Below, in pieces: positions 9,144 through 45,265 of a stretch of 64,000 nt of DNA; the stretch's first letter is position 1; each line of letters opens with the position of its first letter. The notes beneath the pieces were generated by a model, which was not told where the DNA came from, made no database searches, and saw only the letters and a list, made by a program, of their open reading frames with translations. Source of the stretch: an uncultured bacterium (GTDB lineage: Bacteria > Cyanobacteriota > Cyanobacteriia > CAZCXK01); contig CAZCXK010000003.1 in the NCBI GenBank assembly GCA_964502605.1, forward strand, positions 19,476 through 83,475, read 5' to 3'. The translations under genes were made by a program, and so were the position numbers.

Positions 9144-10811
9144 CTACGCAAAGCTCCTGGATCGTTTCAAGCGTCGCCGTTTTTTGCTGTGGCGCGCATC
9201 GGCCTCGTCGGCCTCAACGTCTTCTTGCTGATCAAGCGTCGGCAGTCTCAGTACAACCCCCGCGAAAAACCAGTAGTAAACCGCGACGGGGTCAACATCT
9301 AGGGGGTAATAGTAGGTGTTGTAACTAATAAAGAGCACATAAACCCAGAAGGATGCGCCATAGCTGCGGAGAGTCGGATCGCGCACAGACCGATAGGCCT
9401 TAAACGTTTGAATCGTCAACATGGTCACAAGTGCTAAGAAACACAGCACCCCCAATGGCCCAATTTCATAGAGGACTTTGGGATAGTAAGTTTCGATCAG
9501 CGTTGTTTCTCCCAGTGCCCGCGCCGAATTGGTGGCCCGACCTAAGCCATTGCCAAAAATGCCATTTTGCGATCGCGCCACCCACTCAAACTGACCAACG
9601 ATAAACTGCTGGGGTGGTGAGGCCGCCCAGCGAGATTGAAAGCTAGTAATCCGTTCTTGCATTACCTCTGGGTTGCGAGCAGCAGTGATGCTTAGCAAGA
9701 TCGTGAGAACAAATGCAATTGGCACAAAGCGCTTGAGATTGGCAATTTGCCCTGTCAAAATCAGCAGCAGCACAACCGCCACCGGCACCAGCGCCATCGC
9801 AATTCGCTGACCAGAGAGCACCGACATCACAAACACTGATCCCAGAGCTAATAGGCCCATCGTGCGCCATCGCGCCGTTGGGTCATTAAAGGCGCAGGCA
9901 AACGAGAGAAACCCGGCTGAGATTAGAAACCAACCCCATTGCCATGGAGCCACAAACGTTCCTGGCAAACGAATCTGATTATGTTGAGGGCTATAGAGCA
10001 GTGCGCCCCCGACTAGACAGCGTGCGTTGAGCGACGCCCTAAATAGTTCTGCGCCTTGCTCAAACTGAGTGCCTTCACATCGACCTGTTTTCAAAAATAG
10101 ATATTGGGCAAACCCAAGCGCACAGCAAATCAAAATCAACAAAACGGTGAGGCGCATCAAGAAAAATAAATCTCGTTTGCTGCGCAGGAGATAGTAGGCA
10201 CACACAATCAGGGGGACATAGCCAATCAAAACCTTAAAGCCTAAGATTCCTAATAAAATTGGCTGTTCGCCGCCAGCACTCAACTGTTGACTCCCATTGA
10301 CAACAAGCAGCGTAATCATGCAAACCGATAGCAGAGCCATGAGGGGCAGCATCAGTGGCTTACATACGATGATGGGCAGATTTTCTCGGCGACAATATTG
10401 AATGACACCAATCAGCGCCGGAATGTAGAAGCCATCTTTAGCTAGTTGCAATAATGGGCTGTTGCCGATGCTGTAAGTAATCGTGCCGCCAAAGGGCAAA
10501 TAAATCAAAAATGCCCACAATGCATGTCGGGGATAGCGAAACGATAGCGAGGTATAAAGCACGCCTACGGCTGTACCAAGGCCAGCTTTGGGTTCGGCTA
10601 CTAACCCAATCAAAAACCCGATCAAGGCTGAGAAGAAGACGGCAAAGGCTGTAAAGCTGATGATTTCTTTGCGCAGGCGATCGCGCTTTTTCTTTTCAGT
10701 CAATCGCTCTTTCAACGTCAGCGCTGGCTTCTCTGACTTATTCTGTGTTGTTTTGCTTGACTTTTTTGAGCGTAACCGTCGCCCTGAAGAACCTGACCCT
10801 GCGATCGCCAT
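9144..10811 (-). CDS. Polytopic membrane protein, O-antigen ligase/polymerase (Wzy/WaaL-like) family candidate
   Basis: 555 aa with at least 10 predicted transmembrane helices and a Lys-rich cytoplasmic N-tail. It sits at the end of a three-glycosyltransferase block. Assignment is by architecture and context, not by a strict motif. Confidence 0.5.
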   Translation of the reverse strand: MAIAGSGSSGRRLRSKKSSKTTQNKSEKPALTLKERLTEKKKRDRLRKEIISFTAFAVFFSALIGFLIGLVAEPKAGLGTAVGVLYTSLSFRYPRHALWAFLIYLPFGGTITYSIGNSPLLQLAKDGFYIPALIGVIQYCRRENLPIIVCKPLMLPLMALLSVCMITLLVVNGSQQLSAGGEQPILLGILGFKVLIGYVPLIVCAYYLLRSKRDLFFLMRLTVLLILICCALGFAQYLFLKTGRCEGTQFEQGAELFRASLNARCLVGGALLYSPQHNQIRLPGTFVAPWQWGWFLISAGFLSFACAFNDPTARWRTMGLLALGSVFVMSVLSGQRIAMALVPVAVVLLLILTGQIANLKRFVPIAFVLTILLSITAARNPEVMQERITSFQSRWAASPPQQFIVGQFEWVARSQNGIFGNGLGRATNSARALGETTLIETYYPKVLYEIGPLGVLCFLALVTMLTIQTFKAYRSVRDPTLRSYGASFWVYVLFISYNTYYYPLDVDPVAVYYWFFAGVVLRLPTLDQQEDVEADEADARHSKKRRRLKRSRSFA

Positions 10812-12623: not shown

Positions 12624-13943
12624 CTACCCGCCCGTCAGCAAACGGGTTTGCCTCAACAGAAATTGTAAAAACGTTTCTTCTCGCGAGATGATGTTTGCCT
12701 CCGCCTGCATACCAGCCTGCAACTGACATGGCCGCCTGTTGCGGGGTGTCGTTTGGATCAGGGTAATAGCGTCAGGTTGCAGCGTCACTTCAAAGTAGCT
12801 GGCGAGACTCTCCGGGCGATCGCCCCCCACCTCTGATCGACTCACATCAGGGGCGATCGCGGAGACCGTTGCAGCTAACGTGCCATAGTCAGGAAACGGG
12901 CAGGCTTCGATGCGGAGCTGCGACAATTGTCCCACCTGCACCCGATCAATGTCTTGGGTGTCAACTCGGGCCTTAATCACTAAATTTTGGGTGTTGGGGG
13001 CAATTTGGGCCACCACGTCCCCTGCCTGCACCACTTGATTGGGATTGCGCAAATTGAGTTGAAACACCGTGCCCTCAGTCGCAGCTCGAATGATAGTCTT
13101 CACCAAATCGGCGTCTACTTGCTGCAAGTCTTGCTGGGCCTGCAGCAACTGGGCCTGCAGCTCAGCTTGATTTTGCAACAGCAGTTCTTGTTCGCGCTGC
13201 AAGGTCGCTAGGGTGGCCCGACCTCGCGACTCTTCATGCAAAATTTGCTGTTGGGCGATCGCCACTCCCGCATCAATTGGGTTTAACGCCGCCCGTGCCC
13301 GCCGCACCTGAGCCATTGCCGTTTGGACTGCTGCCCGCTTTTCGTCGAGTTGCAGTTGAGAAACCGCCCCTGAATCAACTAACTGCTGATATCGCTGCAC
13401 TTCAACAGTGGCCAGATCCAATGCAGCCTGTGCTTCTGCGAGGTCGGCCTCAGTGGTCGCCTGCTGTTCACTCAACTCGCGCTGATTGCGATCGAGTTCT
13501 GACTGAGCCGTTGCGACAGTTTGGGCGATCGCCCTGGATTCTGACGCCATCTGCGCCCGCATCAGCTGGATTTGAGTTTCCACCTGGGCTCGTTGAATCT
13601 GTAGTTGCTGAACACCGCCCTGCAACTGCTGCTGTTGTGAGTTGAGTTGGGTGGGGTCGAGGCGGGCGATCACATCTCCCTGCTGCACAGTTTGATTAGG
13701 CTGTATGTCAATACTGGCAACAGTTCCCGTTAGTGCAGACTGCACCACGCGCAGCTCTCCGGCTGGGCGAACAGTCGCAGGGGCTCTGACAGCAACGTTG
13801 TAGGTCACGATCGAGGCTAGCCCCACAGCCAACCCCACGGCACCGATGAGCAATCCCCCTCCGACAATTATCCAGCGGCTAACCGGGGGAAGAAACTCGT
13901 CAACTTGAAGCGATCGCAAGGGTGAAGGTTTGGGATTGAACAT
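12624..13943 (-). CDS. HlyD-family membrane-fusion/periplasmic adaptor protein of a type I (bacteriocin-type) export system
   Basis: ATG at 13943 (MFNPKPSPLRSL...) precedes one N-terminal transmembrane helix (WIIVGGGLLIGAVGLAVGLASIV). A very long Q/A-rich coiled-coil follows, then a C-terminal beta domain. It lies directly downstream of the C39-ABC transporter. The six-frame ORF extends to 14111 and would overlap the transporter gene. Confidence 0.8.
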   Translation of the reverse strand: MFNPKPSPLRSLQVDEFLPPVSRWIIVGGGLLIGAVGLAVGLASIVTYNVAVRAPATVRPAGELRVVQSALTGTVASIDIQPNQTVQQGDVIARLDPTQLNSQQQQLQGGVQQLQIQRAQVETQIQLMRAQMASESRAIAQTVATAQSELDRNQRELSEQQATTEADLAEAQAALDLATVEVQRYQQLVDSGAVSQLQLDEKRAAVQTAMAQVRRARAALNPIDAGVAIAQQQILHEESRGRATLATLQREQELLLQNQAELQAQLLQAQQDLQQVDADLVKTIIRAATEGTVFQLNLRNPNQVVQAGDVVAQIAPNTQNLVIKARVDTQDIDRVQVGQLSQLRIEACPFPDYGTLAATVSAIAPDVSRSEVGGDRPESLASYFEVTLQPDAITLIQTTPRNRRPCQLQAGMQAEANIISREETFLQFLLRQTRLLTGG

Positions 13944-14011
13944 GGGATGAAGCCAGGTAAAGTGGCGCGAAACAGGTGAGAAAGAAAGGGAAAGGGCGAG
14001 AGGGAGACGTT

Positions 14012-16153
14012 TTATACCATCAGAAACTCTAAGTGATCGCCCATGTGTTCCCGTAGTTGATCGGGTGTGCCTTGCCGTTGCAGTTTGCCATTGTCTAGAA
14101 AGACAATCCAATCTGCTAGCTTAATCACGTTGGGACGATGGCTGATCAAAATAGTGGTTTTGCCCTGGCGATATGCCAACACACTTTTTAGGACATGTGC
14201 TTCACTGACGGGGTCTAATCCAGCGGTCGATTCGTCTAGCAGCAGCACAGGTGGATGGTTGATCATGGCACGGGCGATCGCCAACCGCTGCTTTTGACCT
14301 CCTGATAGATTCGAGCCAAACTCTCCCAAAATAGTTTGATACTTTTCGGGCAACCGCCCGATAAACTCATCGGCTCCCGTCATTTCACAGGCTGCAACTA
14401 GATCCTCAAAGGTGAGATGCGGATTGCCCAACCGAAAGTTTTCAATGATAGATCGGCTCCAGAAGTGGGCGTCTTGTGGCACCAAAACAACCTGTTGTCG
14501 AATGCACTCTAGAGCCAGATCATCTAAGTTGTAGTGCCCCATACGAATGTTGCCCGACTGCAACGCATAGAGTCCGGCAATGACCTTGGCCAGAGTGCTT
14601 TTACCACAGCCCGACTTGCCAATCAATGCCGTCACCCGCCCCGCCGGAATGGTCAGCGAGAAGTCGTTCAGCAAATCTACCCGCCCTGGATAATGAAAGC
14701 GCAGATCAGTACAAACAATATTTGCCACCTGAATTTCTACCCAGGGCTTTTGGGAGTCATGCTGGGTTTCAGGGGTGGCTTTGATCACCTCATCCAGCCG
14801 GGTGCTGGCCGTTTGCACGCGAATCCAATCATCGACCACACCCACAAGTTCATCAATCAGCGCGGTAATATTGCGGTTGAGTGTCGTGAAGGCCAGCAAC
14901 TGCCCGATGCTGAGTTCTTGATTAATCACCAATAAGCCACCCAGCCCTAAAATCGCGGCACTGCCAATATCTGCAACGATTTCACTAAACGTGCTATTAA
15001 AAATGCTGATGCGCGTCGTGCTCAGCATCAAGTTGGCCAGCCGCCCAAAGCGGCTTTGCATCTCATCCCAAAACTGATGCTCGGCGGCAGTTGTTTTCAG
15101 CGTCAGTGCGCCCTTGAAGGTTTCTACTAAGACGCCCTGTGTCTCGGTTTCCAACACCATCTCACTGCGGGTTTTCTGTCGCAAGATGGGCTGAAACACG
15201 ATAGTTGAAAGAGTCATTAAGACGGCCACAACCAGCGCCACTGCGGTCAGTTTCCAACTATAAAACAGCATCAGCCCCAGTGAAACTAGAGCAATCAACA
15301 CCGTGCTGGGCAGATTAATGATCACGCCTGAAACTAGCCGATTAATTTCTTCAATATCGCGCAGGCGGCTGACCACTTCTCCACTGCGGCGTGTTTCATA
15401 ATAAGTGAGGGGCAGGCGCAAAATCTGCTGACCAAACTCCAACACAAAACCCAGTTCCAGTCGTTGAGCAAAGTGAGCAATCAGATTGTCGGCCACCAAG
15501 CCTAAGCCACTTCTCACCAGATACATCAGCACAACCGCCAGCACAATGCCCAGCAGCAGGCGCGTGTCGCCGCGAATCAACACATCATCCGTCAAGATTT
15601 GGATAAAGAAAGGGGACGCCAGTGACAGTAAGCCAATCAGCGTGACACATAGCAACGATTCTAGTAAGATGCTGCGATAAGGTAGCAGTCGCCAGAGAAA
15701 CTGCCCCACACCGGTTATCGGGTCATCAGACTGGTGATAAAAGCGGCTAGGGTCTGGCTCAACCAGCAAAATCACGCCATCATGCCAGTCTTCTCTCAGC
15801 TCGGCTTCAGAGAGATAGCGCACACCCACGGCAGGGTCGGCAATCACATAGGTTTTTCCCCGCTTGCCATATAAAATTACCCAATGTTTGCCCCGCCAGT
15901 GAATCACAGCAGGCAGCGCGATGTCATGGAGGCGATCGAGAATTTCAGGAGAGGCGATCGCCGATCGGGCAAAAAATCCTAAGGCTTCACTGCCGCGCCG
16001 CAAGCCCAGCAGTGTCGTACCCAACTGTCCTGTTCCCACGGCTTCACGGGCGCGGCTGAGGCTAAATGTGCGCCCATAGTGTTTGGCAATGGAGGCCAAG
16101 CACGCGGCTCCACAGTCTTCTTCGCTGTGCTGCAAAACCAAGGGATAACGCAT
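14012..16153 (-). CDS. Peptidase-C39-containing ABC transporter (PCAT; bacteriocin/RiPP processing and export ATPase-permease)
   Basis: N-terminal C39 domain with the catalytic Cys in EEDCGAACLASIAKHYG and His in GKHWVILYG. Six transmembrane helices follow. The C-terminal ABC ATPase has Walker A GKSGCGKST, signature LSGGQKQRLAIARA and Walker B LLLDE. Confidence 0.85.
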   Translation of the reverse strand: MRYPLVLQHSEEDCGAACLASIAKHYGRTFSLSRAREAVGTGQLGTTLLGLRRGSEALGFFARSAIASPEILDRLHDIALPAVIHWRGKHWVILYGKRGKTYVIADPAVGVRYLSEAELREDWHDGVILLVEPDPSRFYHQSDDPITGVGQFLWRLLPYRSILLESLLCVTLIGLLSLASPFFIQILTDDVLIRGDTRLLLGIVLAVVLMYLVRSGLGLVADNLIAHFAQRLELGFVLEFGQQILRLPLTYYETRRSGEVVSRLRDIEEINRLVSGVIINLPSTVLIALVSLGLMLFYSWKLTAVALVVAVLMTLSTIVFQPILRQKTRSEMVLETETQGVLVETFKGALTLKTTAAEHQFWDEMQSRFGRLANLMLSTTRISIFNSTFSEIVADIGSAAILGLGGLLVINQELSIGQLLAFTTLNRNITALIDELVGVVDDWIRVQTASTRLDEVIKATPETQHDSQKPWVEIQVANIVCTDLRFHYPGRVDLLNDFSLTIPAGRVTALIGKSGCGKSTLAKVIAGLYALQSGNIRMGHYNLDDLALECIRQQVVLVPQDAHFWSRSIIENFRLGNPHLTFEDLVAACEMTGADEFIGRLPEKYQTILGEFGSNLSGGQKQRLAIARAMINHPPVLLLDESTAGLDPVSEAHVLKSVLAYRQGKTTILISHRPNVIKLADWIVFLDNGKLQRQGTPDQLREHMGDHLEFLMV

Positions 16154-23570: not shown

Positions 23571-24026
23571 TTAAGTATGTGGGAATAGTGATGCAGACAG
23601 CTGATCCTTTAGGTATCGGATATGAGGGGTAACTACGTTTTTATCAAGGATATCATCTGACAGAAACCTCGCACCTTTAATGATTCCAAGGCACTGCTCT
23701 GCCCCACAGACGCATGTAAACGGGCGTTGCATTTCCCACTCTGTGCTGGGGTAAAAGAACGTCAATTCTTCGTGAGCATTAATATCTTTGAGTGCCCGTA
23801 GACCCATCATTTTTAGATCGATCATGATGTTGGGATCACAGGAATGATTCAGGTATATCACAGCATCTTCCCAAAGATGCTGGTCAGAACTAATTTGAAT
23901 ACTTTGATATGTAGGCTGATTCAGTATCATGTAGTTTTTAATTTGATAAAACAGCGTGTCCTTTTTAATAGTATTTAGAGAAATTAGACGCTTTCCTAGA
24001 GCCTGATCTTGTTGAACATAAATCAT
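23571..24026 (-). CDS. SET-domain protein (putative protein-lysine methyltransferase), 151 aa
   Basis: NHSCDPN motif, EELTFFY (ELxF/DY) and a post-SET Cys cluster CVCGAEQC. The gene is markedly AT-rich compared with its neighbours. Confidence 0.7.
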   Translation of the reverse strand: MIYVQQDQALGKRLISLNTIKKDTLFYQIKNYMILNQPTYQSIQISSDQHLWEDAVIYLNHSCDPNIMIDLKMMGLRALKDINAHEELTFFYPSTEWEMQRPFTCVCGAEQCLGIIKGARFLSDDILDKNVVTPHIRYLKDQLSASLFPHT

Positions 24027-24096
24027 GACCTTTACAACTCCTTAAACGTAATGTTTCTGACCTTCAGAATATCAGACTTTTCCTGCCACAGTATTA

Positions 24097-27000
24097 CTAG
24101 AAAGTTGTTCCAATCATGCTAAGTAGATATTTATGTACCAACGTTTCATCAACATTTGGACAGACGATTCCACTACCACGCAACGCTGTAAGAGTCTGTT
24201 GGCAATCAAATATCTGGCTACCAGATAGCCAACCTTCTAATCGACCTAGCTGCTGCTTTGAGATCGAGCCAGGGTCGGTGATCATTTGGGCTAATGGGCC
24301 AAGAGCAGAATCATGGGTCTGAATCAGAGCTTTCCAATGCTGATAGGGAACCTGCTCAACAGCGTAGCCCAAGCGATTCATCTGGTGAACAACATGATCA
24401 AACACAATCGGTTGAGGATTAACCAGATGAAATGACTGACGAAACGAGGTCGGCTGACGAGACAGATAGACCGTCGCTTGGCTGACATAGTCAACCGGAG
24501 TCATATCAACTTTAAAGTCGAGCTTGGGAGCCACCTTAAGCTCAAGAAAACTTTTGAGCAAGCGCCATAAGACATCGTCTGGATTGCAAATACCACTGGC
24601 TTGACTGCCGCTAATCATGCCAAGGCGATAAATACAGATTGGTAGCCCCGCTTCACCGGCACGGGAGACTAACTGTTCGGCAACCCACTTGCTTTGAGCA
24701 TAGCCTCCTGTAATTTTCTCTCCTTGGGCGATCGCCTCATGTTCATAAATGGTGGCATCACTTATTGCCATGCGAGCCTCAAAGACATCTAACGTAGACA
24801 TAAAATGTATTGGCTTGAGCTTGCCATGGTTAGCAAACGCCAAGATTGACCTAGTTCCGACCACATTCACAGCTTTGAGCGCAGCATAGGGAAGAACCAG
24901 GTTGACGTTAGCGCCGCTGTGATAGACCACATCGACCGTCGTAGCTAAGGTTTGAAATGTATTTCTCGGCAATCCGAAGAGCGGTTGCGCCAAATTGCCC
25001 ACAACAGGGATGATGCGAGAATAAAAGGGATTCAGATCAAGTTTATATTTCTGAGCGGTTTGGCGGAGCTTTTGATAAGCTTCCGTCAAATTTTGAGCCC
25101 GAATGAGGCAATAAATTGTAGCGTCTGTCTGCTGCAAGAGTTCCAACAAGATGGCAGCACCGATAAATCCAGTAGCCCCCGTTAGTAGAACTGACTGGGG
25201 AACCGTCCAGTGAGTTTGATCTGCGACCTTAGCCTTGAGGGTAAAATCTAACGTCGCCTCAGCCTGTAACTGAAGCAGCGTTACTTGCTTAGGGATAGCT
25301 GATACGGCGGGACTCTGAATTTGCTGAGCCAGACCACTGATGGTAGGTCTATGAAAAAATTCCTCCAGCGACAGGCTAACTTGATGAGTCTGTTCGACAT
25401 GAGAAACTAACTCCATCAACCGGAGTGAATTGCCGCCTAACTCGAAAAAGTTATCGTGTAGACCAATCGCTTCAATTTCTAGCACCGTTGACCAAATCAT
25501 CGAGAGGTCTTGCTCAAGAGGAGTGGTGGGCGCGACAAAGTCCACATCTAAGTCAGGCCTGACCTGACCCGGTGTAGGCAACGCCTGGAAATCGATCTTG
25601 CCGTTAGGTGTTAGAGGCACCGAGTCAAGCGTGACAAATGCCGAAGGCACCATATAGGCAGGTAGTTGCTGCAGCAAATAGGAGCGTAGTTCTCGGGAAA
25701 GGTAATGTGCTGCCTTTTCCTGGAGTGGATTATTAGCATAGGACTGCCAAGATCGTTGGGTTCGACAACTCTGAGGCGACAATGATGCGATTGGTAATAG
25801 TTGCACATCACCATCCAGTGGCGATCGCCGCTTAATCAAGACATCATACGATCCTTCTACTCCACCTGCGGCCCAACTCAGTGTGACGTCATATGGCACC
25901 TCTCCCAAGCGGTGCCATAGGTCTTCTGGATTAACTCCCTTAGAGGAAGTCTGGTGTGTGAGGGCTTGCCTGAGTTCTCCCACCGTTATGGGGCAAGCCT
26001 CCTGACGCAACATCTGCAATGCCCAGACAGCTGCTAACACCCGTGCATTTGGAACCTTGTGAATGCCCAAGACTGGAGGAGGGCATTCACCATTTAGCAG
26101 GTGGTGTAACGCGGGCACCGTCAGTTGATGTTGTTGCCAGTCTAGCCAGGGATACTCCTCTGGAATCAAAAGCTCAGCATCAATCCGCAGGATGGCGTCA
26201 TAGCGAAACTGAGTCAGCTCATTCTCAAACTCACCTCGTTTCAACAGCACTTGCACCTGGCTAACTTGCGGCAGATGCTGCTGAAGAGCACTAAAAAATT
26301 CGGGATCAAGGGTCAGTTCTCCTTCCTGATCAAGTCGCTTTTGAATGCGATCGCGCAGAACATCAGTTGACATATCATCAGGAGCTTGAAACAGCTCAAC
26401 GGACGCAGCAAAGGTTTCTTGCAAGACATAGTTGCGAATGTCTCCAATGAAAATGACGCCGCCCGGTTTAACTAGTTCGACCGCCTGCTTGATGACCCGT
26501 AGGAGATAGGCAACACTGGGAAAATATTGAATAACAGAGTTAATAATAACCGTATCAAACGACTGGGGTTCTAGCCCTTCTAAGCGATCAGCCATCCGCT
26601 GTTCCAGCACAACCTGAGGTAGATTTACAGACGGATGGTTGAGTTGCTGGTTGACATACTCTAATGCAGCTGTAGAGAAATCGATGCCAACATATCGCAG
26701 ACAAGAGGGGGCAATGCGAAAAAGCAAGAGCCCTGTGCCACAGCCAATTTCTAAAACCTGTTGAGGCCGATAGGTCAAAATTCGCTCGACTGTGTGGTTG
26801 ACCCATTCATGCATTTCACAGTCAGGGATGAGTGCTTCGGTATAGCTACTCATCCAGCCGCTGATGTTAAATGTACCGTCCCAGCCTGATTTAGCAGGAT
26901 TTAGATAGTCATCACTGTGAATGAAACGCCATTGCTTAATTTGCTCTGCTTCTAGTTGAGAAAGTCCAGCCTCGTTCAGGTGCTTCCGGTCAGTCAAAGC

Positions 27001-28401
27001 ATTCACAACATAGGCAACCAGATATTTGCCTCCCAAAGTATCGTCTCTGGCCACAACGATGGCCTCTTGCACAGCAGCATGTTGCGCTAGAACTAGTTCA
27101 ATTTCTCGCAGCTCAACGCGAAAGCCACGAATTTTTTCCTGGCGATCGCCCCGATCTAGAAACTCTAGATGCCCATCAGAGCGAGATCGCACCCGATCGC
27201 CAGTCTTATAAAGACGAACTGGAAGGTTGCCATGTAAACTCACAAACACAAACTGTTTGGCCGTCAGCTGCGGACAATTGAGATAGCCCCGAGCCAAACC
27301 GGCTCCGCCAATGTAGAGATCGCCAATTTCACCAGGACGAACGGGTCGTCTATCTACATTCAGAACATAGGTTTGAATATTGGAGAGCGGCAACCCAATT
27401 GGCACTAGTTCAGTATCAACAGCAACGGCATTGGAGCCAACTAAGTCGCAGCAGGTTGCAATCACTGTCGATTCGGTGGGGCCATAGGCATTGATCAGCC
27501 TTACCTGAGGGCTCACATAGGCCTTCCACAGGTCTAGCCATCGAGGCAGTGCTCGTTCTCCACCAATCAACACCAAACGAATCGTAGATGGAAAAGGGAT
27601 AGTTGTTAAGCCACCACACAGTTTGTGCCAGAAAGCTGTTGATAGGTCTAATACCGTTAGTTTTAAAGTATCGCACGCACTGAAAAAAGCAGACACAGAA
27701 TGGAGCATATCAGGAGAACGCAGCACAAGTGTCGCCCCTTGTGTCAGAGTAATGAAAATTTCCTCAACTGCGTGATCAAAACTAATTGACGAAAATTGTA
27801 AGACGCGATCGCCCGCTACAACCCCATAGGCATCTCCTGCGGCTTGGGCAAAATTGACCAAGGCTCGATGTTCAATCATCACGCCTTTGGGCCTGCCAGT
27901 GGAGCCTGAAGTATAAATAACATAGGCCAGATTGTCGGGAATTGCCAGCGGTTCAGGGTTTTGCGCGGGTTCTTGAGCAATGCGCTCCCCATCAGTTTCT
28001 AAACAAACAACCTTAGTTGGATACGCTGAAAACCATGAAGCCAAAGGATGCTGGCACAACATCACTGCAACTTGTGAATCACCCAGCATCACGGCTAAGC
28101 GTTCTTCAGGATAGTCAGGATCAAAGGGCACATATGCGCCACCCGCTTTGAGAATGGCTAGCACCCCTACAATCATGGCAGGCGATCGCTCAAAATGGAG
28201 ACCAACCAACACCTCTGGAGCAACATTTAATCGTCGCAAATAGTGAGCCAGACGATTAGCCTGCTGGTTTAACTCATCATAAGTCAGATGCGTATTACCG
28301 GAAATTAGGGCGATTGCATCGGGAGTTTCAGAAACCGTTGCTTCAAACCATTCGTGAATGCAAAAACTGTAATCCTTCGTAGGATGGGAGAAGATAGACA
28401 T
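24097..28401 (-). CDS. Single-module non-ribosomal peptide synthetase-like enzyme: adenylation domain with embedded SAM-methyltransferase, then PCP, then a C-terminal thioester reductase (A(MT)-T-R)
   Basis: A-domain core motifs YTSGSTGRPKG (A3), NAYGPTESTV (A5), GEIGDLYIGGAGLARGY (A6), YKTGD (A7) and GRxDxQxKIRGFRVEL (A8). An inserted methyltransferase carries VLEIGCGTGLLL. Motifs A9/A10 follow (LPAYMVPSAFV...NGKID), then PCP (FFELGGNSLRLMEL) and a reductase Rossmann motif (LLTGATGFIGAAIL) in an SDR-like domain. Confidence 0.85.
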   Translation of the reverse strand: MSIFSHPTKDYSFCIHEWFEATVSETPDAIALISGNTHLTYDELNQQANRLAHYLRRLNVAPEVLVGLHFERSPAMIVGVLAILKAGGAYVPFDPDYPEERLAVMLGDSQVAVMLCQHPLASWFSAYPTKVVCLETDGERIAQEPAQNPEPLAIPDNLAYVIYTSGSTGRPKGVMIEHRALVNFAQAAGDAYGVVAGDRVLQFSSISFDHAVEEIFITLTQGATLVLRSPDMLHSVSAFFSACDTLKLTVLDLSTAFWHKLCGGLTTIPFPSTIRLVLIGGERALPRWLDLWKAYVSPQVRLINAYGPTESTVIATCCDLVGSNAVAVDTELVPIGLPLSNIQTYVLNVDRRPVRPGEIGDLYIGGAGLARGYLNCPQLTAKQFVFVSLHGNLPVRLYKTGDRVRSRSDGHLEFLDRGDRQEKIRGFRVELREIELVLAQHAAVQEAIVVARDDTLGGKYLVAYVVNALTDRKHLNEAGLSQLEAEQIKQWRFIHSDDYLNPAKSGWDGTFNISGWMSSYTEALIPDCEMHEWVNHTVERILTYRPQQVLEIGCGTGLLLFRIAPSCLRYVGIDFSTAALEYVNQQLNHPSVNLPQVVLEQRMADRLEGLEPQSFDTVIINSVIQYFPSVAYLLRVIKQAVELVKPGGVIFIGDIRNYVLQETFAASVELFQAPDDMSTDVLRDRIQKRLDQEGELTLDPEFFSALQQHLPQVSQVQVLLKRGEFENELTQFRYDAILRIDAELLIPEEYPWLDWQQHQLTVPALHHLLNGECPPPVLGIHKVPNARVLAAVWALQMLRQEACPITVGELRQALTHQTSSKGVNPEDLWHRLGEVPYDVTLSWAAGGVEGSYDVLIKRRSPLDGDVQLLPIASLSPQSCRTQRSWQSYANNPLQEKAAHYLSRELRSYLLQQLPAYMVPSAFVTLDSVPLTPNGKIDFQALPTPGQVRPDLDVDFVAPTTPLEQDLSMIWSTVLEIEAIGLHDNFFELGGNSLRLMELVSHVEQTHQVSLSLEEFFHRPTISGLAQQIQSPAVSAIPKQVTLLQLQAEATLDFTLKAKVADQTHWTVPQSVLLTGATGFIGAAILLELLQQTDATIYCLIRAQNLTEAYQKLRQTAQKYKLDLNPFYSRIIPVVGNLAQPLFGLPRNTFQTLATTVDVVYHSGANVNLVLPYAALKAVNVVGTRSILAFANHGKLKPIHFMSTLDVFEARMAISDATIYEHEAIAQGEKITGGYAQSKWVAEQLVSRAGEAGLPICIYRLGMISGSQASGICNPDDVLWRLLKSFLELKVAPKLDFKVDMTPVDYVSQATVYLSRQPTSFRQSFHLVNPQPIVFDHVVHQMNRLGYAVEQVPYQHWKALIQTHDSALGPLAQMITDPGSISKQQLGRLEGWLSGSQIFDCQQTLTALRGSGIVCPNVDETLVHKYLLSMIGTTF

Positions 28402-28763
28402 GCAATCTAGTTGTCTCTCATCGAGACTCGATATATTAGCACCGCTGACATCTCAGTGTAATACCAAATTACAGACTTGGTGTCTGCTTCTAGCAGCTAT
28501 TGAGAGTCTTTCATTCTAAACTGCCTAATTAACGAGATGTTTCAACAGTTCCTGCACTCGCTTTTGCATCACGATCAGATGCAAACAGATCCCAATCACC
28601 CGAACTGACTTGACATCATTGGGCATCCAGCGCTCGTCTGAGCAGGTCTTAAATCTTTCCACCATTCCAACGACCGACATAGATGAGTATTGCGTCGATC
28701 TGAATCAGCACGCCCTGGCCAAAATTTTTGGTGTCATAGTATTAAGATTATTTACATTCGGTC

Positions 28764-28948
28764 TGTGGAAAAGCACCTATTCTCTGTGGAGAACTGGTGA
28801 ACAGGCCAGGGAAAACCTTTAAACTCAAGGGGGAAAGTTCTCATGAGTATTTATACTCTGTGAGAAACTCAATCAGTTATCCCCATGTTTTCCACAGGCT
28901 ACATGCGTTGTGATTTCCTTTCCGAAACTGATCCCCCACTTTTCCACA
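28764..28948. promoter_or_regulatory. Cluster of DnaA boxes (TTTTCCACA type) upstream of dnaN; candidate chromosomal replication origin core
   Basis: Two perfect TTTTCCACA boxes at 28888-28896 and 28940-28948. One perfect reverse box TGTGGAAAA at 28764-28772 and a one-mismatch reverse box TGTGGAGAA at 28785-28793. A 90-nt AT-rich stretch (28961-29050) follows before dnaN. Confidence 0.55.
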
Positions 28949-29182
28949 GTTTCCCCAGGCTCTACTACTACTCTTACTTTTAAATAGATTTTAAAGATTC
29001 CTTAGCTTTACAAACCAGATTTAGCAAAATTGAACCTTTTTTTCAGGAGTGATAGGATCTCGTTCCAGGCTGATTCATTGCATCAGTGCAACTCCACTGG
29101 TCTCCGATTGTCATCATCGAGCTGGGGGCGCTACGGATTCACCTGTTTCTCCGTGCTATTGTTTCATTGGTTTCTGAGCATT

Positions 29183-36061: not shown

Positions 36062-39000
36062 CTATGAGTCAGCAACCTCTGGAGTTACCAATACCTCACC
36101 TCGGAGCATTCGCTGAGCCGCATCTAGCAGCGCTTCTTCCAAATAGGGTTTCGTGAAATACCCCTTTGCACCCAACTGCACCGCCATTTGACGGTGCCGA
36201 TCGGCACCGCGCGATGTCAGCATGGCCACAGGTAAATCACTCAGATGAGGATCTTTTTGAATCCGAGAGAGCAGCTCCAGACCATCCATTCTGGGCATTT
36301 CAATATCACAGAACACAAGCTGACAGGGCAATCCCGATCGCAGTTTCTCCCAGGCTTCTTGACCGTCACGCGCTTGTTCAACGCGATATCCCACCTTAGT
36401 AAAGGTCATCGACAGCAACTCTCGCACCGTAATGGAATCATCCACAATGAGCACAGTGGGTTCACTCTTGGTGCCGGGAGTTTCTGCCGGGGGTTGGCTG
36501 TAGTCTTTTTCCCAAAGAGAACTGCCTGCTTCGCGGCGGAGGCGGCCCATTGACAGATCAATTAGCTCTAAAACATCGGCGATCGGCATAATGCGCCCAT
36601 CACCTAATACAGTGGCACCGGCAATGCCAATTGGCTTGGGCACTGGAGGTTCAAGCTGCTTGATCACAATTTCCTGTTCTCCCAGCACCTGATCGACTTG
36701 CAACGCCAGAAAGTTGCCCGCACTTCTCAACACAATGACAGAAACAATATCGTCTTCCTGATTGCCGCCATAGACGCTACCCCGTCCCAAGACACGGTTA
36801 TAGCGCAGTAAGTCAGCCAGCGGATGAAAAGGCAGCAGGATATCGCGCCACAAAATGCATGAGCGGCCTTGATCATCCGTTTGAATCCGCTCTTTGGGCA
36901 CGTCGAGCATGTCTTCGACTCCATCCATCGGGAACGCGATGCGAGCGCGATTGCTGACGCAGAGTAGCGCCTTAGAGATGCTGAGCGTTAATGGTAGTCG
37001 AATCGTAAACGTGGTGCCCTTCCCGACGCTGGAATCAATGTTGATGACACCCCGAATTTCATTCAAACTCGTGCGCACAACATCCATACCAACACCCCGC
37101 CCAGAGAAGTCGTCTGCCTTGTCTTTCGTGCTAAATCCATGATGGAACAGCAGATCGTAAATATCAAGTTGCGAGAGGGTTCGAGCTTCTTCTGGCGTAA
37201 TCAGGCCACGTGCAACGGCCTTTTGCGTCACCAAGTCTGAGTCAATGCCTGCCCCATCATCGGTGACAGAGATGACAGTTTGGTTGCCTTGGTGGAAGGT
37301 ACGAATCGTAATTTTGCCAGTGGGAGGCTTGCCCGATGCCAGACGTACCTCAGGGGGCTCAATGCCGTGAGTAATCGCATTGTTAACCAGGTGAGTCATT
37401 GGGTCATAAAGCTGCTCTAAGATCATCTTGTCAATCAGCGTGTCACGACCTTCGATGACTAACTCAGCCTGCTTACCACACTTAATCGAAATGTCTCGTA
37501 CAGCTCGAGGTAGACGGTCAGCGGCTTGACCGAATGGCACCATTCGTGATCGCGTCAGACCTTCTTGCAGCTGTGTTGTGACCTGACGAAACATGCGAGT
37601 GATTTGGTCATTTTCGTCAACTACAAAGTCAATGTCAGAGGCAGACTCTCGCACTCGAACAATCAGCTCAATCATTTCTTGTGAGAGCGTATGGAATCCA
37701 GTAAATCGATCCATCTCTAGAGCGTCAAAGCTAGCACCCGTCGAGTGCATACCCTGGCTAGGAATGTTGTGCAGATGGGACGACAGGTGATAGCTGCGCC
37801 GATTGGATAGCAGAGAACTCTCGAGGAGCGATCGCTCGTAAAGATCTCGCATGCGTTGCCCGACATCGCTCAACTGCTGCACTTGGTAAAGCAAGTTATC
37901 TAGAAACTGGCGCAACCGTTCCTGAGTTTGTTCAAGGCTATTGCGGTTGACCACCAACTCCCCGACCAAGTTGTTGAGGTTGTCAAGATGTTTAACCGAT
38001 ACACGCATTGTCTGGTCTGTCAGCACGCCTCGCCGCCCAGTTCGGCGGGCAGCAGGAGCCGAACTCCGACGACTCGTTAAGTTCGTTGGGGGGCCTCCTA
38101 AGGTTTTATCTGCATCTGCCAGTAGCCGTTCTAGATCATCAAACTCGTCTTCTCCGTGTTCTTCCTCAATCAGAGGGAGGCTGTCCAAGCCTGTCAGATC
38201 GACTAAATCAGAGTCATCGGCAGCAAACTCATTATCGAGTAGCGTCTCTAAATCGACAGCGGCGTCCTCTAGTTCGAAGGAGACGATATCAGCTTGAGGG
38301 GGGGCAGGCTCGGGAGTCTCGCCGTAAGACCCAAGCAACGCATCTAAATCTGCCAACTCGCTGCTCAAATTTGTGAATTCATTCCCTAAATCCGCTGTGG
38401 GGTCTGAGATAGGGTCAGAAGTCGTTGTTTCAGATGCTTCTGGCTCTGCGGCTCCCAACAGGGCATCTAAATCATCAAAAGCATCTATGTCATGAACTGG
38501 ATCAGATGTGGCTGTTTCAGGCATTGCAGATGATTCAAGAGGTTCTGCAGAAAAATCTGATGTGAGATCAGAGTCAGAGACCTGATCGGCCTCAACGTCT
38601 CCAGAATCCAATTCCAGGTCAAAGCCTGATAACTCCTCATTCCTAAATAACTCATCAGTTAAGTCGATATCAGCCTCTAACAGGAGATCCTCGGCTTCGG
38701 CATTTGGTTCACGGTCAAATAAGGCATTCAAATCATCAGCGGATGGGGAGGTCATCCGATCAGAGCTTCGATCGGAGCTTCGATCGGATGAAGATGCCGG
38801 GATTTCAGGTTCTGGTATCTTCAGATCATCGTCTGCGACAGCAGCAGCAGGACGAGATTCTTCAGGATCATGAATAGTAGATTCTGGGGCAATTTCTGGG
38901 GCAGTTTCTGGAATCAGTTGGGCACTGACCGCAGATGGCTCTTGGCTGAGATCTGGCTCTGGCAAGGCCTCAGGCTCGGCTTGTCCAGACTCGTCGATCT

Positions 39001-41302
39001 CCATTGAAGACAAGGCACCATCATCACTGGAGAGCTGCTCCCAGTCGAAATCTAAGTCAGCAAGATCTAAATCGTCCAAGGAAAGGTCTAACTCGGGGGC
39101 AGGATTTAATTCGTCTTCTGATGAGATGCAGTCAAAGGCGCTCTCGCTTGCCTGTGTGTCTAGAGGGCGATCGCCCTCTAAGCTATCCCAGAGGTCAGAG
39201 GTCACATCAGTATCGTCAACCTCAGATGCTGCGAACTCAGACGCTGCAACTTCAAAACTATCAAAAGCACTCTCATCAAAAGTTATACTCTCATCAGCCG
39301 TTGCAGACTGCTGATCCGGAGCCTCTAACTCGGAATTTACCTCAACAAATACCTCTCCACTCTCTGAGGGGTCTGGCTCTAACGCATCGAATGCTAGGTC
39401 ATCTAGCAGAGCGTCTGACAACTCCACTGGCTCTGGAGAAGTAGACTCATTGAAACTAGCCTCAGGCGTATCTGAGATCTCATTCAACAACGCATCAAAA
39501 TCATCGAGTTCGGGGTCGGCATTAAGTTCAACATCAGCACCTCCTGCGTTACCTCCCAGATTGGGAGTAGGCGCATCGACCTCTAGAACTTCCGGATCAG
39601 GCTGATCAAACCCCGACTGGGGATCGTTAAATTCGGAGAAAAACTCACCTAAACGATCAATATCCTCAGGGTCTGGGAGCGACTCCAGTGACATATCAGC
39701 AAAACTATCTCCTAGATTCTGAGTGGCAACGCTATCTAACTCAGTATCCAGTGTCTCTGAAATCGCAGGATCTAAAACAGAGTCCAGCGAATCGACCAAT
39801 TCATCTAGAGCAGCCAAATCCGTAAGCTCATTAGAGGTTGCCTCAGTATGATTGGCTTCAAATTCTGAATTGTTTAGCAACCCAGAGAGGTCATCATCAA
39901 TATCAGATTCGCTGGCAAAAAAGGGCTCCGCCCTATCATTGTCAAACAGCAGATCAGAAAAATCGTTGGATTCATCAAACTCCAAAGAATCCGCCCCGCC
40001 TTCACCGCTTTGCCCGATGGCATCATCGTCTTGCCAAGTCATATCCAGATCAGGCACTTCGCTTTCAAACAAGTCAGCCAGACTGTTAAGCTCCGCCATG
40101 CCGACTTCTGGACCTGACTGGCTAATCGGATGAGGCGTCGGAGTAGAGGGCTGGACGTCAGCATCGGAGGCAAAGAAATCGACAAACTGTGCGTTGTCGG
40201 GCGATTCATCAAGGGAGAATGTCGTGGCACTGTCAGTTAAGGAGAGGGCATCTGTAGACTCTGCCGGTGTGACTGGCTGAGAGGTCGCATCTAAGGCCGT
40301 TAGCCATGCCTCATCAAAATCATCTCCCTCGGCTGAGGGTAAGTCGGTCGCGACGTCAATATCAAGATCTGAAACTCCGCTGATCCAATCGTCATCAGCC
40401 ATCAGGCGATCGAAGTCAAAATCATCCAAATTGCCGCCCGAAGCTGCCGCGACTGGCAATAGGGCAAGAAGCACGTCGCTCGCTTGAATTGCGTCAAATC
40501 GTTCGGCTAAGACGAGTTCTTGAGCCTGTTTGATATCTTTGATGACTATGGGAGCCAGCACCCGAAAACTGTTATCAGAATGGGCGATCGCCTGTTGGGT
40601 TATTTGGATCAGATTAACCCAACTGCTAATCTGAAGCAGCTCCCCCCCCTGCACGAGCTGTTGGCAAATTGCATGTAGTTCTGATCGGCTAGTAGGCTGC
40701 TCGGGCTGCTTAAACACATGGAGCATTGCCCGTAAATGAGTCGGCACCTCAGTTAAGAAGAATGGCCGCCATGGATGACTAGCAGAAGCCGCAGCCTGAT
40801 TGGCAATTGCTTCCTGAGGAATAGACAGATCAACATCTGAGGGCAGAGTTTTGCCCCCTTGTGCCACTAGCACCGCTAAATGCTGATTGAGATCATTAAA
40901 GACAGGCTCAACGTCTGCCATAATTTCACGGGCCTTGTCGTCGGGCAACCCAAATGGCCCTTGCAGTTGTTCTAACAGGTCTTGCAGGGTATCAAAGACC
41001 CGCAGCAGAAACGTCTCTAATTTCTGATCGACTTGCAGCGGACACTCTTTCAAGACTTTGAAATAATCTTCTAGCCGATGGGATGTTTGCTGGATACTGT
41101 CAAGCCCCAGCATTGCAGCACCGCCTTTGACAGAGTGGGCAGCCCGAAAGACTTCGCTAATCATTTCTGAGTCTTCAATGGTGCGCTGCAAGTCTAGCAA
41201 ACCCTGCTCAATCGTACTGAGGTGGTCTTTTGCCTCCTCAATGAAGTAACCCATGATTCGCTGTTGTTGTTCTGACTGCATCACGGTTCCCCCCTTCTGC
41301 AT
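36062..41302 (-). CDS. pilL: Hybrid CheA-type histidine kinase (Hpt, long acidic disordered linker, dimerisation/HATPase, CheW-like domain and C-terminal receiver); PilL/HmpE-type kinase of the pilus-motility chemosensory system
   Basis: Hpt motif HSVKGGAAMLGL near the N-terminus. A linker of about 700 aa is extremely D/E/S-rich. The HATPase has the G1/G2 boxes (DDGAGID, GRGVGMDVV). A CheW-like domain follows, and the C-terminal REC domain has DD...D (LIVDDSITVRELL...FCDIEMPRMDGLELL...K). ATG at 41302 (MQKGG) was chosen; the six-frame ORF starts with TTG at 41335. Confidence 0.8.
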   Translation of the reverse strand: MQKGGTVMQSEQQQRIMGYFIEEAKDHLSTIEQGLLDLQRTIEDSEMISEVFRAAHSVKGGAAMLGLDSIQQTSHRLEDYFKVLKECPLQVDQKLETFLLRVFDTLQDLLEQLQGPFGLPDDKAREIMADVEPVFNDLNQHLAVLVAQGGKTLPSDVDLSIPQEAIANQAAASASHPWRPFFLTEVPTHLRAMLHVFKQPEQPTSRSELHAICQQLVQGGELLQISSWVNLIQITQQAIAHSDNSFRVLAPIVIKDIKQAQELVLAERFDAIQASDVLLALLPVAAASGGNLDDFDFDRLMADDDWISGVSDLDIDVATDLPSAEGDDFDEAWLTALDATSQPVTPAESTDALSLTDSATTFSLDESPDNAQFVDFFASDADVQPSTPTPHPISQSGPEVGMAELNSLADLFESEVPDLDMTWQDDDAIGQSGEGGADSLEFDESNDFSDLLFDNDRAEPFFASESDIDDDLSGLLNNSEFEANHTEATSNELTDLAALDELVDSLDSVLDPAISETLDTELDSVATQNLGDSFADMSLESLPDPEDIDRLGEFFSEFNDPQSGFDQPDPEVLEVDAPTPNLGGNAGGADVELNADPELDDFDALLNEISDTPEASFNESTSPEPVELSDALLDDLAFDALEPDPSESGEVFVEVNSELEAPDQQSATADESITFDESAFDSFEVAASEFAASEVDDTDVTSDLWDSLEGDRPLDTQASESAFDCISSEDELNPAPELDLSLDDLDLADLDFDWEQLSSDDGALSSMEIDESGQAEPEALPEPDLSQEPSAVSAQLIPETAPEIAPESTIHDPEESRPAAAVADDDLKIPEPEIPASSSDRSSDRSSDRMTSPSADDLNALFDREPNAEAEDLLLEADIDLTDELFRNEELSGFDLELDSGDVEADQVSDSDLTSDFSAEPLESSAMPETATSDPVHDIDAFDDLDALLGAAEPEASETTTSDPISDPTADLGNEFTNLSSELADLDALLGSYGETPEPAPPQADIVSFELEDAAVDLETLLDNEFAADDSDLVDLTGLDSLPLIEEEHGEDEFDDLERLLADADKTLGGPPTNLTSRRSSAPAARRTGRRGVLTDQTMRVSVKHLDNLNNLVGELVVNRNSLEQTQERLRQFLDNLLYQVQQLSDVGQRMRDLYERSLLESSLLSNRRSYHLSSHLHNIPSQGMHSTGASFDALEMDRFTGFHTLSQEMIELIVRVRESASDIDFVVDENDQITRMFRQVTTQLQEGLTRSRMVPFGQAADRLPRAVRDISIKCGKQAELVIEGRDTLIDKMILEQLYDPMTHLVNNAITHGIEPPEVRLASGKPPTGKITIRTFHQGNQTVISVTDDGAGIDSDLVTQKAVARGLITPEEARTLSQLDIYDLLFHHGFSTKDKADDFSGRGVGMDVVRTSLNEIRGVINIDSSVGKGTTFTIRLPLTLSISKALLCVSNRARIAFPMDGVEDMLDVPKERIQTDDQGRSCILWRDILLPFHPLADLLRYNRVLGRGSVYGGNQEDDIVSVIVLRSAGNFLALQVDQVLGEQEIVIKQLEPPVPKPIGIAGATVLGDGRIMPIADVLELIDLSMGRLRREAGSSLWEKDYSQPPAETPGTKSEPTVLIVDDSITVRELLSMTFTKVGYRVEQARDGQEAWEKLRSGLPCQLVFCDIEMPRMDGLELLSRIQKDPHLSDLPVAMLTSRGADRHRQMAVQLGAKGYFTKPYLEEALLDAAQRMLRGEVLVTPEVADS

Positions 41303-41368
41303 GCTCTGGGCGATCGCCCAACGACTATAGTTCAAACATTACCCACATCTCGAACTCAAGCAAGCACA

Positions 41369-44233: not shown

Positions 44234-44276
44234 TTGCTATCTCCCGCCTGTGCGAGTGTTCAATCGAGGTATACAG

Positions 44277-44807: not shown

Positions 44808-44830
44808 TACATCTAACCTTACTCACAACC

Positions 44831-45196
44831 TTATCCACGTAGTAGCTGCTTTACAGTTCCAACCAATTCAGTCGGTTGGAATGGTTTTGCAATGTATGCA
44901 TCCGCCCCTTGTTTCATGCCCCAGTAGCGATCGAACTCTTCTCCCTTAGACGAGCACATGACCACAGGCACGTTCTGGGTTTTGGGATCAGCCTTTAGCC
45001 TGCGACACACCTCATAGCCGTTCATTCTAGGCATTACAATGTCTAATATGACAAGATCAGGACAGTGACCTTTGATTTGTTCGAGCGCATCGACGCCATC
45101 ACTTGCTACTGTCACGTCGAGACCGCTGCATTTGAGGAGGTCTGTAATCATTTCCCGTTGGGTCACGCTATCTTCTACTACTAGAACTGTACTCAT
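44831..45196 (-). CDS. pilH: CheY-like single-domain response regulator (PilH/HmpB type)
   Basis: 121 aa with VLVVEDS, DLVILDIVMPRMNGYEV and the conserved Lys in YIAKPF. Confidence 0.85.
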   Translation of the reverse strand: MSTVLVVEDSVTQREMITDLLKCSGLDVTVASDGVDALEQIKGHCPDLVILDIVMPRMNGYEVCRRLKADPKTQNVPVVMCSSKGEEFDRYWGMKQGADAYIAKPFQPTELVGTVKQLLRG

Positions 45197-45265
45197 AACT
45201 GCCTACCTGTTAACCGTCCAAGGAAACGGGAAAGATGCTTGCCACTCATCCTCATGATTGTAGAG

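Follow-up and report, generated by a model that had tools for sequence, protein, structure and literature searches.

The locus

We analysed a 64,000-nucleotide stretch of contig CAZCXK010000003.1 from an uncultured bacterium (the whole stretch is called the window below), in which a gene for a stand-alone nonribosomal peptide synthetase (NRPS)-like enzyme of 1434 aa is followed by a gene for a SET-domain methyltransferase of 151 aa. Both open reading frames (ORFs) lie on the minus strand, exactly where the initial annotation had placed them (Table 1). Judged by its composition (GC 0.506, 100 HIP1 sites per 64 kb) and by the closest relatives of the 1434-aa protein, which come from metagenome-assembled genomes of Elainellaceae, the window is cyanobacterial. 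DNA identical to it is present in stromatolite metagenome assemblies.

Both genes read in the same direction with 70 bp between them, the sequence AAGGAG precedes the ATG of the SET gene within the spacer, and a terminator scan found no terminator-like site there. From these features we infer that the pair is co-transcribed. Over the window as a whole the promoter and terminator scan stayed at background level, and we use it for the spacer only. No Rfam family matched at the gathering threshold anywhere in the 64 kb, the region upstream of the NRPS gene included; a candidate leader RNA in front of that gene was rejected as a single chance match to a long non-coding RNA (E 0.58). Genes near the SET gene are cobO, NUDIX, OprB and dnaN. 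Since none of the 20 window ORFs scanned with Pfam holds a further NRPS or polyketide synthase (PKS) domain, the module appears to stand alone.

Table 1. Features of the two-gene locus (window coordinates) and sensor kinases at related loci (coordinates of each locus)
Feature	Position	Strand	Evidence
Stand-alone NRPS-like gene, A(N-MT)-T-R, without condensation domain, 1434 aa	24097..28401	-	ORF, Pfam, NCBIfam, PDB sequence matches, 60 orthologues
Adenylation domain, N-terminal part, residues 19-468, motifs A1-A8	26998..28347	-	Pfam AMP-binding 19-374
Putative N-methyltransferase domain, residues ~470-900, between A8 and A9	25702..26994	-	Pfam Methyltransf_12/11/25/31 (548-665); 5wmm alignment
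Adenylation domain, C-terminal remainder, residues 901-945, A9 LPAYMVP, A10 NGK with K935	25567..25701	-	Split AMP-binding_C; invariant residues
Carrier (thiolation) domain, residues 965-1027, phosphopantetheine site Ser992 (GGNS)	25321..25509	-	Pfam PP-binding (965-1027)
Terminal NAD(P)H thioester reductase, residues 1070-1429	24115..25194	-	Pfam NAD_binding_4 (1073-1309), TIGR01746, MxaA 4u7w
AT-rich spacer, 70 bp, NRPS stop to SET start	24027..24096	-	Sequence, GC 0.371
Minimal SET-domain methyltransferase gene, 'FFYPSTEW' family, BurB-like, 151 aa	23571..24026	-	Pfam SET, BurB 9l4t match, AF2 model
dCache kinases	L084 7496-10249; L085 12471-16652; L086 12463-16245; L171 5180-7906, 12657-17447

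The NRPS-like enzyme is intact

The domain order proposed in the initial annotation, adenylation (A) with an embedded methyltransferase (MT), thiolation (T) and reductase (R) without a condensation domain, is borne out by Pfam, by sequence alignment to a solved structure and by invariant motifs. Pfam recognises a split A domain, a carrier and a terminal reductase, with several S-adenosylmethionine (SAM) methyltransferase models matching in between (Table 1); it finds no Condensation domain in the protein, and the A domain begins so close to the N-terminus (residue 19) that there is no room for one. Core motifs A3 (YTSGSTGxPKG), A5 (NxYGPTE), A7 (YKTGD), A8 and the A10 lysine are present, and the A domain model TIGR01733 scores 420 bits against a cut-off of 317. 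Residues 14-941 align as one contiguous piece to the interrupted A-M-A unit of TioS (5wmm; E 1.4e-125), the MT being inserted between A8 (GDRQEKIRGFRVELREIE, residues ~417-435) and A9 (residues 913-919), with the A10 lysine at K935. Within the insert stand motifs typical of NRPS N-methyltransferases, VLEIGCGTGLL from residue 549 and NELTQFRYD at 727-735, and by these sequence features it is a putative backbone N-methyltransferase of the TioS type, predicted to methylate N rather than O.

Conservation was read from an alignment of 60 full-length orthologues (46-71% identity), of which those with a named source are all cyanobacterial. Invariant in it are the A3 and A5 residues, P914, Y916, P919, G934 and K935, the glycines G553, G555 and G557 of the SAM motif, G989, G990 and Ser992 of the carrier, T1074, G1075, T1077, G1078, F1079 and G1081 of the NAD(P)H-binding motif (TGATGFIG, 1074-1081), and the reductase triad T1203/Y1234/K1238. 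The R domain itself scores 320-325 bits with TIGR01746 (cut-off 213) and matches MxaA (4u7w) with E 7e-85. Because the A motifs, the carrier serine, the NAD(P)H motif and the triad are all intact, the enzyme looks fully functional. The worry that its reductase might be inactive is thus set aside, and the catalytically intact reductase implies, as had been supposed, release of an N-methyl amino aldehyde or alcohol instead of a peptide. The nearest relatives of the R domain include both aldehyde- and alcohol-forming kinds (MxaA and MxcG can yield alcohols, Lys2 yields an aldehyde), and the sequence would fit either outcome.

An acidic substrate pocket

The specificity code, whose extraction the initial annotation had put forward as a check, was obtained by alignment to GrsA with numbering verified against 1amu. 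It reads DHEDLGAVIK (D209, H210, E213, D252, L278, G280, A305, V313 and I314, with K935), and the consensus of the NRPS family is DAEDIGTVVK. D209 aligns with D235 of GrsA, the aspartate that binds the alpha-amine, and its retention implies that the substrate should be an alpha- (or beta-) amino acid. In GrsA positions the pocket has Glu at 239 and Asp at 278, with no aromatic residue at any position. The pocket segment is by far closest to ApnA A1 (4d4g; E 1e-28, all others 1e-11 or weaker), which we take to be an Arg/Tyr-activating domain and which likewise has Glu at position 239. Nearest among the codes known to us are those for lysine (DAESIGSVCK) and beta-lysine (DTEDVGTMVK).

The best specific NCBIfam match is to MxcG, the myxochelin synthetase, which activates lysine and releases its product by reduction; the scores are 407 bits for the A domain alone, 284 for the R domain alone and 778 for the whole protein. 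The last lies far below the equivalog cut-off of 2300 bits, and the window enzyme, with an MT insert and no Condensation domain, is not an MxcG equivalog. Models of Lys2 and of carboxylic acid reductases (CARs) also match the R domain. On these sequence comparisons a cationic substrate of the lysine type is favoured.

Two further pocket positions vary among the orthologues. All four enzymes linked to a SET gene, that of the window included, have Ala322/Val330, whereas the window enzyme's sisters without SET have Thr322/Ile330. The roomier pocket is suggestive of loading of an already methylated substrate, which would mean that SET acts first.

The SET protein resembles BurB

Pfam identifies the 151-aa protein as SET (PF00856, 39.8 bits against a cut-off of 22.4). 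It is a minimal version of the domain, with no pre-SET, post-SET or peptide-binding extension, and residues N60, H61 and C63 of its NHSC motif and Y92 of the catalytic site are invariant in the family. The best sequence match in the PDB is BurB (9l4t; E 3e-13, 30% identity overall and 41% over an 87-aa core), whereas histone methyltransferases reach ~1e-8. Structure comparison gave the same picture. An AF2 model built with 44 homologues is a confident SET fold (pLDDT 93), and its top three Foldseek matches are BurB structures (TM 0.73-0.74, E 1.6e-10 to 1.9e-9), superposed over 146-150 aligned columns of the 151-residue query; histone lysine methyltransferases (KMTs) follow at ~1e-6, three to four orders of magnitude behind. 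A signature, Y-[A/P]-S-T-E...F-x-C-x-C-G, is common to the window SET family and BurB and absent from ASH1L, the sole histone KMT aligned for this comparison.

With few exceptions, SET-domain enzymes are regarded as methylating lysine in proteins (histones). To our knowledge, BurB is the only SET enzyme with a free amino acid as substrate and a role in a natural-product pathway that has been studied both biochemically and structurally. Itself a minimal SET protein, it holds free L-methionine by main-chain contacts inside a closed pocket and methylates the sulfur to give S-methylmethionine (SMM) (PMC12542666). With the amino acid bound by main-chain atoms, there are no diagnostic side chains by which substrates could be compared. 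This step opens a route to dimethylsulfoniopropionate (DMSP), which an acidic-pocket A domain then loads on the NRPS-PKS BurA (PMC7496086). The standing of BurB as nearest match, together with the amino-acid enzymes encoded beside cyanobacterial relatives of the window SET (see below), speaks for free amino acids, and not proteins, as the substrates of the family.

The initial annotation had read the base composition of the SET gene as a sign of recent acquisition. The gene is indeed AT-rich (its GC of 0.397, the window having 0.506, places it among the lowest 1% of 456-bp segments), but SET genes lie 5-10 GC points below their locus in 6/6 other cyanobacterial loci. One of these six is a SET domain fused to an orthologous NRPS-like enzyme, with GC 0.355 against 0.447 for the remainder of that ORF. 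Low GC is thus a trait of the cyanobacterial SET family, kept even in a fused domain, and is no evidence of recent arrival. Nor does the lack of HIP1 sites point to foreign origin: 47% of 456-bp segments of the window are likewise without one, which makes their absence from the SET gene uninformative. It was also an overstatement that SET genes are unusual in bacteria. A protein search returned 419 homologues, of which the best (P0002) is only 50% identical to the window SET, more than 600 metagenome stretches encode the FFYPSTEW motif, and further members are numerous in cyanobacteria and Bacteroidota. NCBI labels members of the family 'protein-lysine N-methyltransferase'.

Linkage of the two genes across loci

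Linkage was assessed in eight orthologous loci, namely the window and L084, L085, L086, L090, L171, L172 and L173. SET is linked to the A(MT)TR gene in four of them. Besides the window these are L090 and L171, where an orthologue with 55-58% identity has a separate SET gene nearby, and L084, where the two are fused into one A(MT)-T-R-SET protein of 1586 aa (P0125) with SET at the C-terminus. Three sources, Logan, JGI and NCBI, supply three non-identical sequences of the fusion, which is therefore not an assembly artefact. It is confined to one 90% cluster. A search for further fusions that started from its SET domain listed stand-alone SETs of 125-205 aa and nothing else. The L090 enzyme is 81% identical to that of L084 and has its separate SET gene directly downstream, followed by a methyltransferase gene of the NNMT/PNMT/TEMT family. 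In L171 the order is SET, dCache kinase, A(MT)TR, dCache kinase and a response regulator-GGDEF-EAL gene.

In the NRPS tree the SET-linked enzymes are spread over three different clades, and identity among their SETs is only 34-49%, from which it follows that the partnership arose or was kept repeatedly. As a control, SET was sought in 80 NRPS loci taken from a scan of contigs with the family alignment, which was dominated by the generic YTSGSTGxPK motif and gave mostly unrelated NRPSs; none had it. The link between SET and the NRPS-like gene appears to be real, but lineage-specific and facultative. Cooperation of the two proteins, which the initial annotation could only conceive of, now has the backing of the fusion, of recurrent adjacency in cyanobacteria and of BurB as the nearest characterised relative. 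We found no description of a SET-NRPS pairing in cyanobacteria, or of the A(N-MT)-T-R family, in the searchable literature.

The neighbours of other SET homologues are informative as well. P0002 directly follows another lone NRPS module (L087). In Nostoc (L088, 1812-5578) the genes after a SET homologue encode a flavin amine oxidase and a KamA-family (lysine-2,3-aminomutase-like) radical SAM enzyme, and in Rhizonema (L174, 7633-9644) the gene after it encodes an enzyme resembling diaminopimelate (DAP) decarboxylase.

The window and L086, which encodes an orthologue with 70% identity, share the order S26 peptidase-DAO-cysS-dnaN-NRPS. Downstream of the NRPS gene the two diverge, with a dCache histidine kinase in L086 and SET-cobO-NUDIX-OprB in the window, so SET stands at the break of synteny.

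Several further observations were made at these loci. The NRPS of L087 (3976-11120) is a lone A-T-sulfotransferase-thioesterase module of 1285 aa with the code DAECYGGIV- and Glu at 239; it is followed by the window-SET homologue and accompanied by an EamA exporter and a DdaF-like ATP-grasp ligase, and the cluster appears unusual and uncharacterised. The NNMT/PNMT/TEMT-family gene follows SET in both L084 (6539-7321) and L090 (6949-7710), so these clusters encode three methyltransferases; the L084 copy scores 108 bits against a cut-off of 60 with the NCBIfam model of GntF, the guanitoxin amine N-methyltransferase. Hybrid sensor kinases of the dCache_1-HAMP-HisKA type flank the orthologues in four of the seven related loci (Table 1), while none was found among the 20 window ORFs scanned with Pfam. 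Their position suggests that, in the kinase-flanked loci, the A(MT)TR product is sensed or its synthesis is under signal control. Among the metagenomic SET loci L091-L170, the commonest immediate neighbour of SET, in 21 loci (e.g. L095, 1501-2805), is a protein of ~385 aa which by eye looks radical-SAM-like (CxxxCxxC) and helix-hairpin-helix-like. A 476-aa ORF of a non-cyanobacterial metagenome (L109, 11358-12788), grouped with the SET proteins by BLAST, has a D-Ala-D-Ala-ligase-like N-terminus, its features, read by eye, suggesting an ATP-grasp-like/SET fusion.

Other features of the window

The gap of 628-781 bp between the NRPS start and dnaN (28402-29182) is a candidate oriC. About 340 bp of non-coding DNA in it (about 28736-29079) share 85-90% identity with the syntenic spacer in L086, compared with ~70% for the flanking proteins. 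Three exact DnaA boxes (TTTTCCACA) and one with a single mismatch lie at 28764-28948, and the rest of the 64 kb holds one other exact copy. The cumulative GC skew, profiled over the 18-34 kb stretch, has its minimum at ~29 kb. By these sequence signs the gap is probably the chromosomal replication origin.

Elsewhere, a chemotaxis-like operon on the minus strand (36062-46585) encodes a CheA-type hybrid kinase of 1757 aa, a HAMP-MCP protein of 954 aa and a DUF4388/PatA-like response regulator of 439 aa. A C39-peptidase ABC exporter (713 aa) and its HlyD-family partner (495 aa) form a pair of the bacteriocin- or peptide-export type at 12624-16153, and a 685-aa ORF (56804-58861) fuses a DAO-type oxidase (ThiO-like) with ThiG of thiazole synthesis. 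Three ORFs of 1099, 583 and 555 aa (52664-55963, 48226-49977 and 9144-10811) have no Pfam match at E <= 1e-5.

Discussion

Our preferred explanation, to which we give a probability of about 0.4, is that the two genes form a small-molecule pathway in which the SET enzyme would methylate a free basic amino acid and the module would load it, N-methylate it and release it reductively. Using SAM, the SET enzyme would act on the side chain of the free amino acid, as BurB does, the most probable target being the terminal amine of L-lysine or of a close basic analogue (beta-lysine, ornithine). The A domain, with its acidic pocket (Glu239, Asp278 and Asp235), would then adenylate the cationic alpha-amino acid and load it on Ser992, and the MT between A8 and A9 would methylate the alpha-amine of the thioester. 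Finally, the terminal reductase with NAD(P)H would free the N-methyl amino aldehyde by a two-electron reduction, or may go on to the amino alcohol by a four-electron one. The predicted product is a small, multiply N-methylated, cationic aldehyde or alcohol derived from lysine. The initial annotation had left out the option that SET acts on the free amino acid before loading, as well as that of SET as an S-methyltransferase. Methylation of free lysine is not without precedent: the SET enzyme Rubisco LSMT shows it as a side activity, and a methyltransferase dedicated to free lysine, still without a gene, was purified from Neurospora (PMC8085414).

A number of observations weigh against this explanation. 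The only characterised relatives of the SET protein, BurB and MSMT, methylate the sulfur of methionine and not the nitrogen of lysine, and the pair of SET and DAP-decarboxylase-like enzyme in L174 mirrors BurB with BurI (PMC11464771). The MxcG match is modest evidence, as NCBIfam has few NRPS-specific models and the score is far under the cut-off. Full-text literature searches for the code strings found no published A-domain code identical to that of the window. The correlation of the pocket residues with SET covers eight loci, and L172 has Ala322 yet no SET; in view of this counter-example Ala322/Val330 was lowered from a firm marker of SET linkage to a suggestive one. With regard to linkage, no SET lies within 8 kb of the orthologue in L085, L086 and L172, nor on the contig of L173, where only ~480 bp upstream are covered, and L085 and L086 hold the two closest relatives of the window enzyme that were looked up (70% identity). 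None of 80 metagenomic SET loci (L091-L170), almost all of them non-cyanobacterial and only 22 of them 8 kb or longer, has an NRPS domain.

The main rival explanation, possible if on the whole unlikely, is that the chemistry is that of a sulfonium. SET would then make SMM from methionine, and the module would load and N-methylate it and release a sulfonium amino aldehyde or alcohol, whose dimethylsulfonium could later act as a leaving group or form the head group of an osmolyte. BurB being the best match of the SET protein in sequence and over its full-length structure, and sharing with it the signature that ASH1L lacks, speaks for this route, as does the fact that BurB is only 35% identical to its functional counterpart MSMT (PMC7496086), so that the divergence of the window SET is compatible with the same function. 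Delivery of an onium acid by a SET enzyme to an acidic-pocket A domain has precedent in the same system (PMC7496086), and SMM is itself a cationic amino acid like lysine and ornithine. The pairing in L174 also fits, given that BurI and SMMDC, which decarboxylate SMM in bacteria, have their greatest similarity to a candidate of the DAP-decarboxylase type and that the plant SMM decarboxylase is a homologue of ornithine decarboxylase (PMC11464771); as SMM decarboxylases were recruited from such enzymes, a 'lysine-like' A domain would not exclude SMM. The SET and amine oxidase of L088 recall the plant route from SMM through DMSP-amine to the aldehyde, but the KamA-family neighbour at the same locus points to substrates of the Lys, Arg or Glu type. 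Moreover, a pocket with two carboxylates and no aromatic residue would suit a protonated amine better than a sulfonium, and the A domains known to bind sulfonium or betaine substrates, those of BurA and ATRR, lack Asp235 and have a hydrophobic loop instead (PMC7496086). The A and R domains find their best match in lysine-specific MxcG, and the orthologues without a nearby SET share the acidic code, all of which would need an unlinked source of SMM.

We regard as doubtful the view that there is no functional link at this locus, SET being a widespread methyltransferase, housekeeping or accessory, that was inserted independently at the synteny break beside the NRPS gene, and the module acting alone on lysine or a similar amino acid. 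The objection of the initial annotation, that the SET gene might occur at unrelated loci, holds in part: the 80 metagenomic loci have SET without NRPS, in 21 cases beside the radical-SAM/helix-hairpin-helix protein, and L085 and L086 have the module without SET, a dCache histidine kinase taking the SET position in syntenic L086. The linkage in four of eight orthologous loci tells the other way. The window SET has no close relative and differs from its neighbours in composition, but the low GC is a mark of its family and not of recent arrival, and its nearest homologue also flanks a lone NRPS module. An accidental neighbour is equally hard to square with the same strand and 70-bp spacer free of terminator-like sites, with the adjacency in L090 and L171, or with the fused form of the two proteins that three independent sequences show in another lineage.

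That SET is a protein-lysine methyltransferase regulating the synthetase (through the A10 or a carrier-domain lysine) or another protein is very improbable: such methylation is the canonical chemistry of the superfamily and the function named by NCBI, and the fusion would equally fit an autoregulatory domain, but a minimal SET that matches the BurB fold along its full length, BurB being closed around a free amino acid (PMC12542666), and whose cyanobacterial neighbours are amino-acid-metabolising enzymes does not look like one.

Methylation of a free basic amino acid ahead of the module thus remains the explanation we prefer. The evidence for a SET-NRPS partnership is good; substrate, product and role we infer. 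A role as signal or compatible solute, hinted at by the GntF-like methyltransferase and the dCache kinases of related loci, is speculative. A broader scheme seems to us an unlikely one. In it the FFYPSTEW SETs would be dedicated N-methyltransferases of free lysine or other basic amino acids, which in cyanobacteria would supply methyl-lysine to the widespread A(N-MT)-T-R family; the polymethylated cationic product would be an extracellular signal or a compatible solute, and the dCache kinases and GGDEF/EAL regulator beside the gene in related loci would sense it. The activity that the scheme supposes, methylation of free lysine, was purified from Neurospora in 1977 (PMC8085414).

Comparison with known systems shows what is shared and what is not. 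BurB of Burkholderia thailandensis and MSMT of Streptomyces mobaraensis are minimal SETs of ~150-180 aa and L-methionine S-methyltransferases, and the window SET is similar in size. Like BurB it has NHSC, a catalytic-site tyrosine (Y92 here, Y124 in BurB), the STE motif and a C-x-C-G...C tail, and is encoded beside a thiotemplate enzyme with acidic residues in its A-domain pocket. Unlike BurB, it belongs to a large separate 'FFYPSTEW' clade and has for partner a lone A(N-MT)-T-R module and not an NRPS-PKS. Decarboxylation, transamination and oxidation turn the BurB product into DMSP, and only then does an A domain without Asp235 load it (PMC7496086), whereas no SMM decarboxylase, aminotransferase or aldehyde dehydrogenase of such a route was found among the 20 window ORFs scanned with Pfam, and the window A domain keeps Asp235 and so should take an alpha-amino acid.

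As in MxcG, a basic amino acid thioester is predicted to be released by a terminal reductase of the SDR type. MxcG is, however, a C-A-T-R enzyme; that of the window has no condensation domain, hence no acylation by an aryl carrier, and has an N-methyltransferase inserted in its A domain. The insertion between A8 and A9 and the VLEIGxGxG and NELxxxRYD motifs are those of TioS A4a-M4-A4b (5wmm), but TioS belongs to a multimodular depsipeptide line and passes its product to a condensation domain, whereas the window module is free-standing and ends in a reductase. In this it resembles the stand-alone A-T-R enzymes (fungal Lys2, the tyrosine reductases HqlA/LnaA, CARs and the glycine-betaine reductase ATRR), which adenylate, form a thioester and reduce within one module and make no peptide bond; CARs and ATRR take acids without an alpha-amine, unlike the window A domain with its Asp235. 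We know of no embedded N-methyltransferase or SET partner in Lys2, HqlA/LnaA, CAR or ATRR.

The pieces, then, are known: an interrupted A domain of the TioS type, a terminal thioester reductase as in MxcG, MxaA and Lys2, and a BurB-like SET. What appears new, as far as the searchable literature goes, is their combination in a free-standing A(N-MT)-T-R family with at least 60 cyanobacterial members and a cation-binding code, repeatedly paired with SET, once fused to it and often flanked by dCache kinases. BurB was believed to occur in some Burkholderia only (PMC9135737); the locus and its relatives reveal a far larger BurB-like family than this implied, whose cyanobacterial members have repeatedly become partners of lone NRPS-like modules with pockets of the cation-binding kind, in one case by fusion. 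If our explanation is true, the locus would stand for a new class of small methylated metabolites of the onium type and for 60 or more uncharacterised enzymes of cyanobacteria. The SET proteins would be candidates for free-lysine methylation or a new source of SMM, and the NRPS-like enzyme and the dCache kinases would form a metabolite-sensor pair as a possible signalling system.

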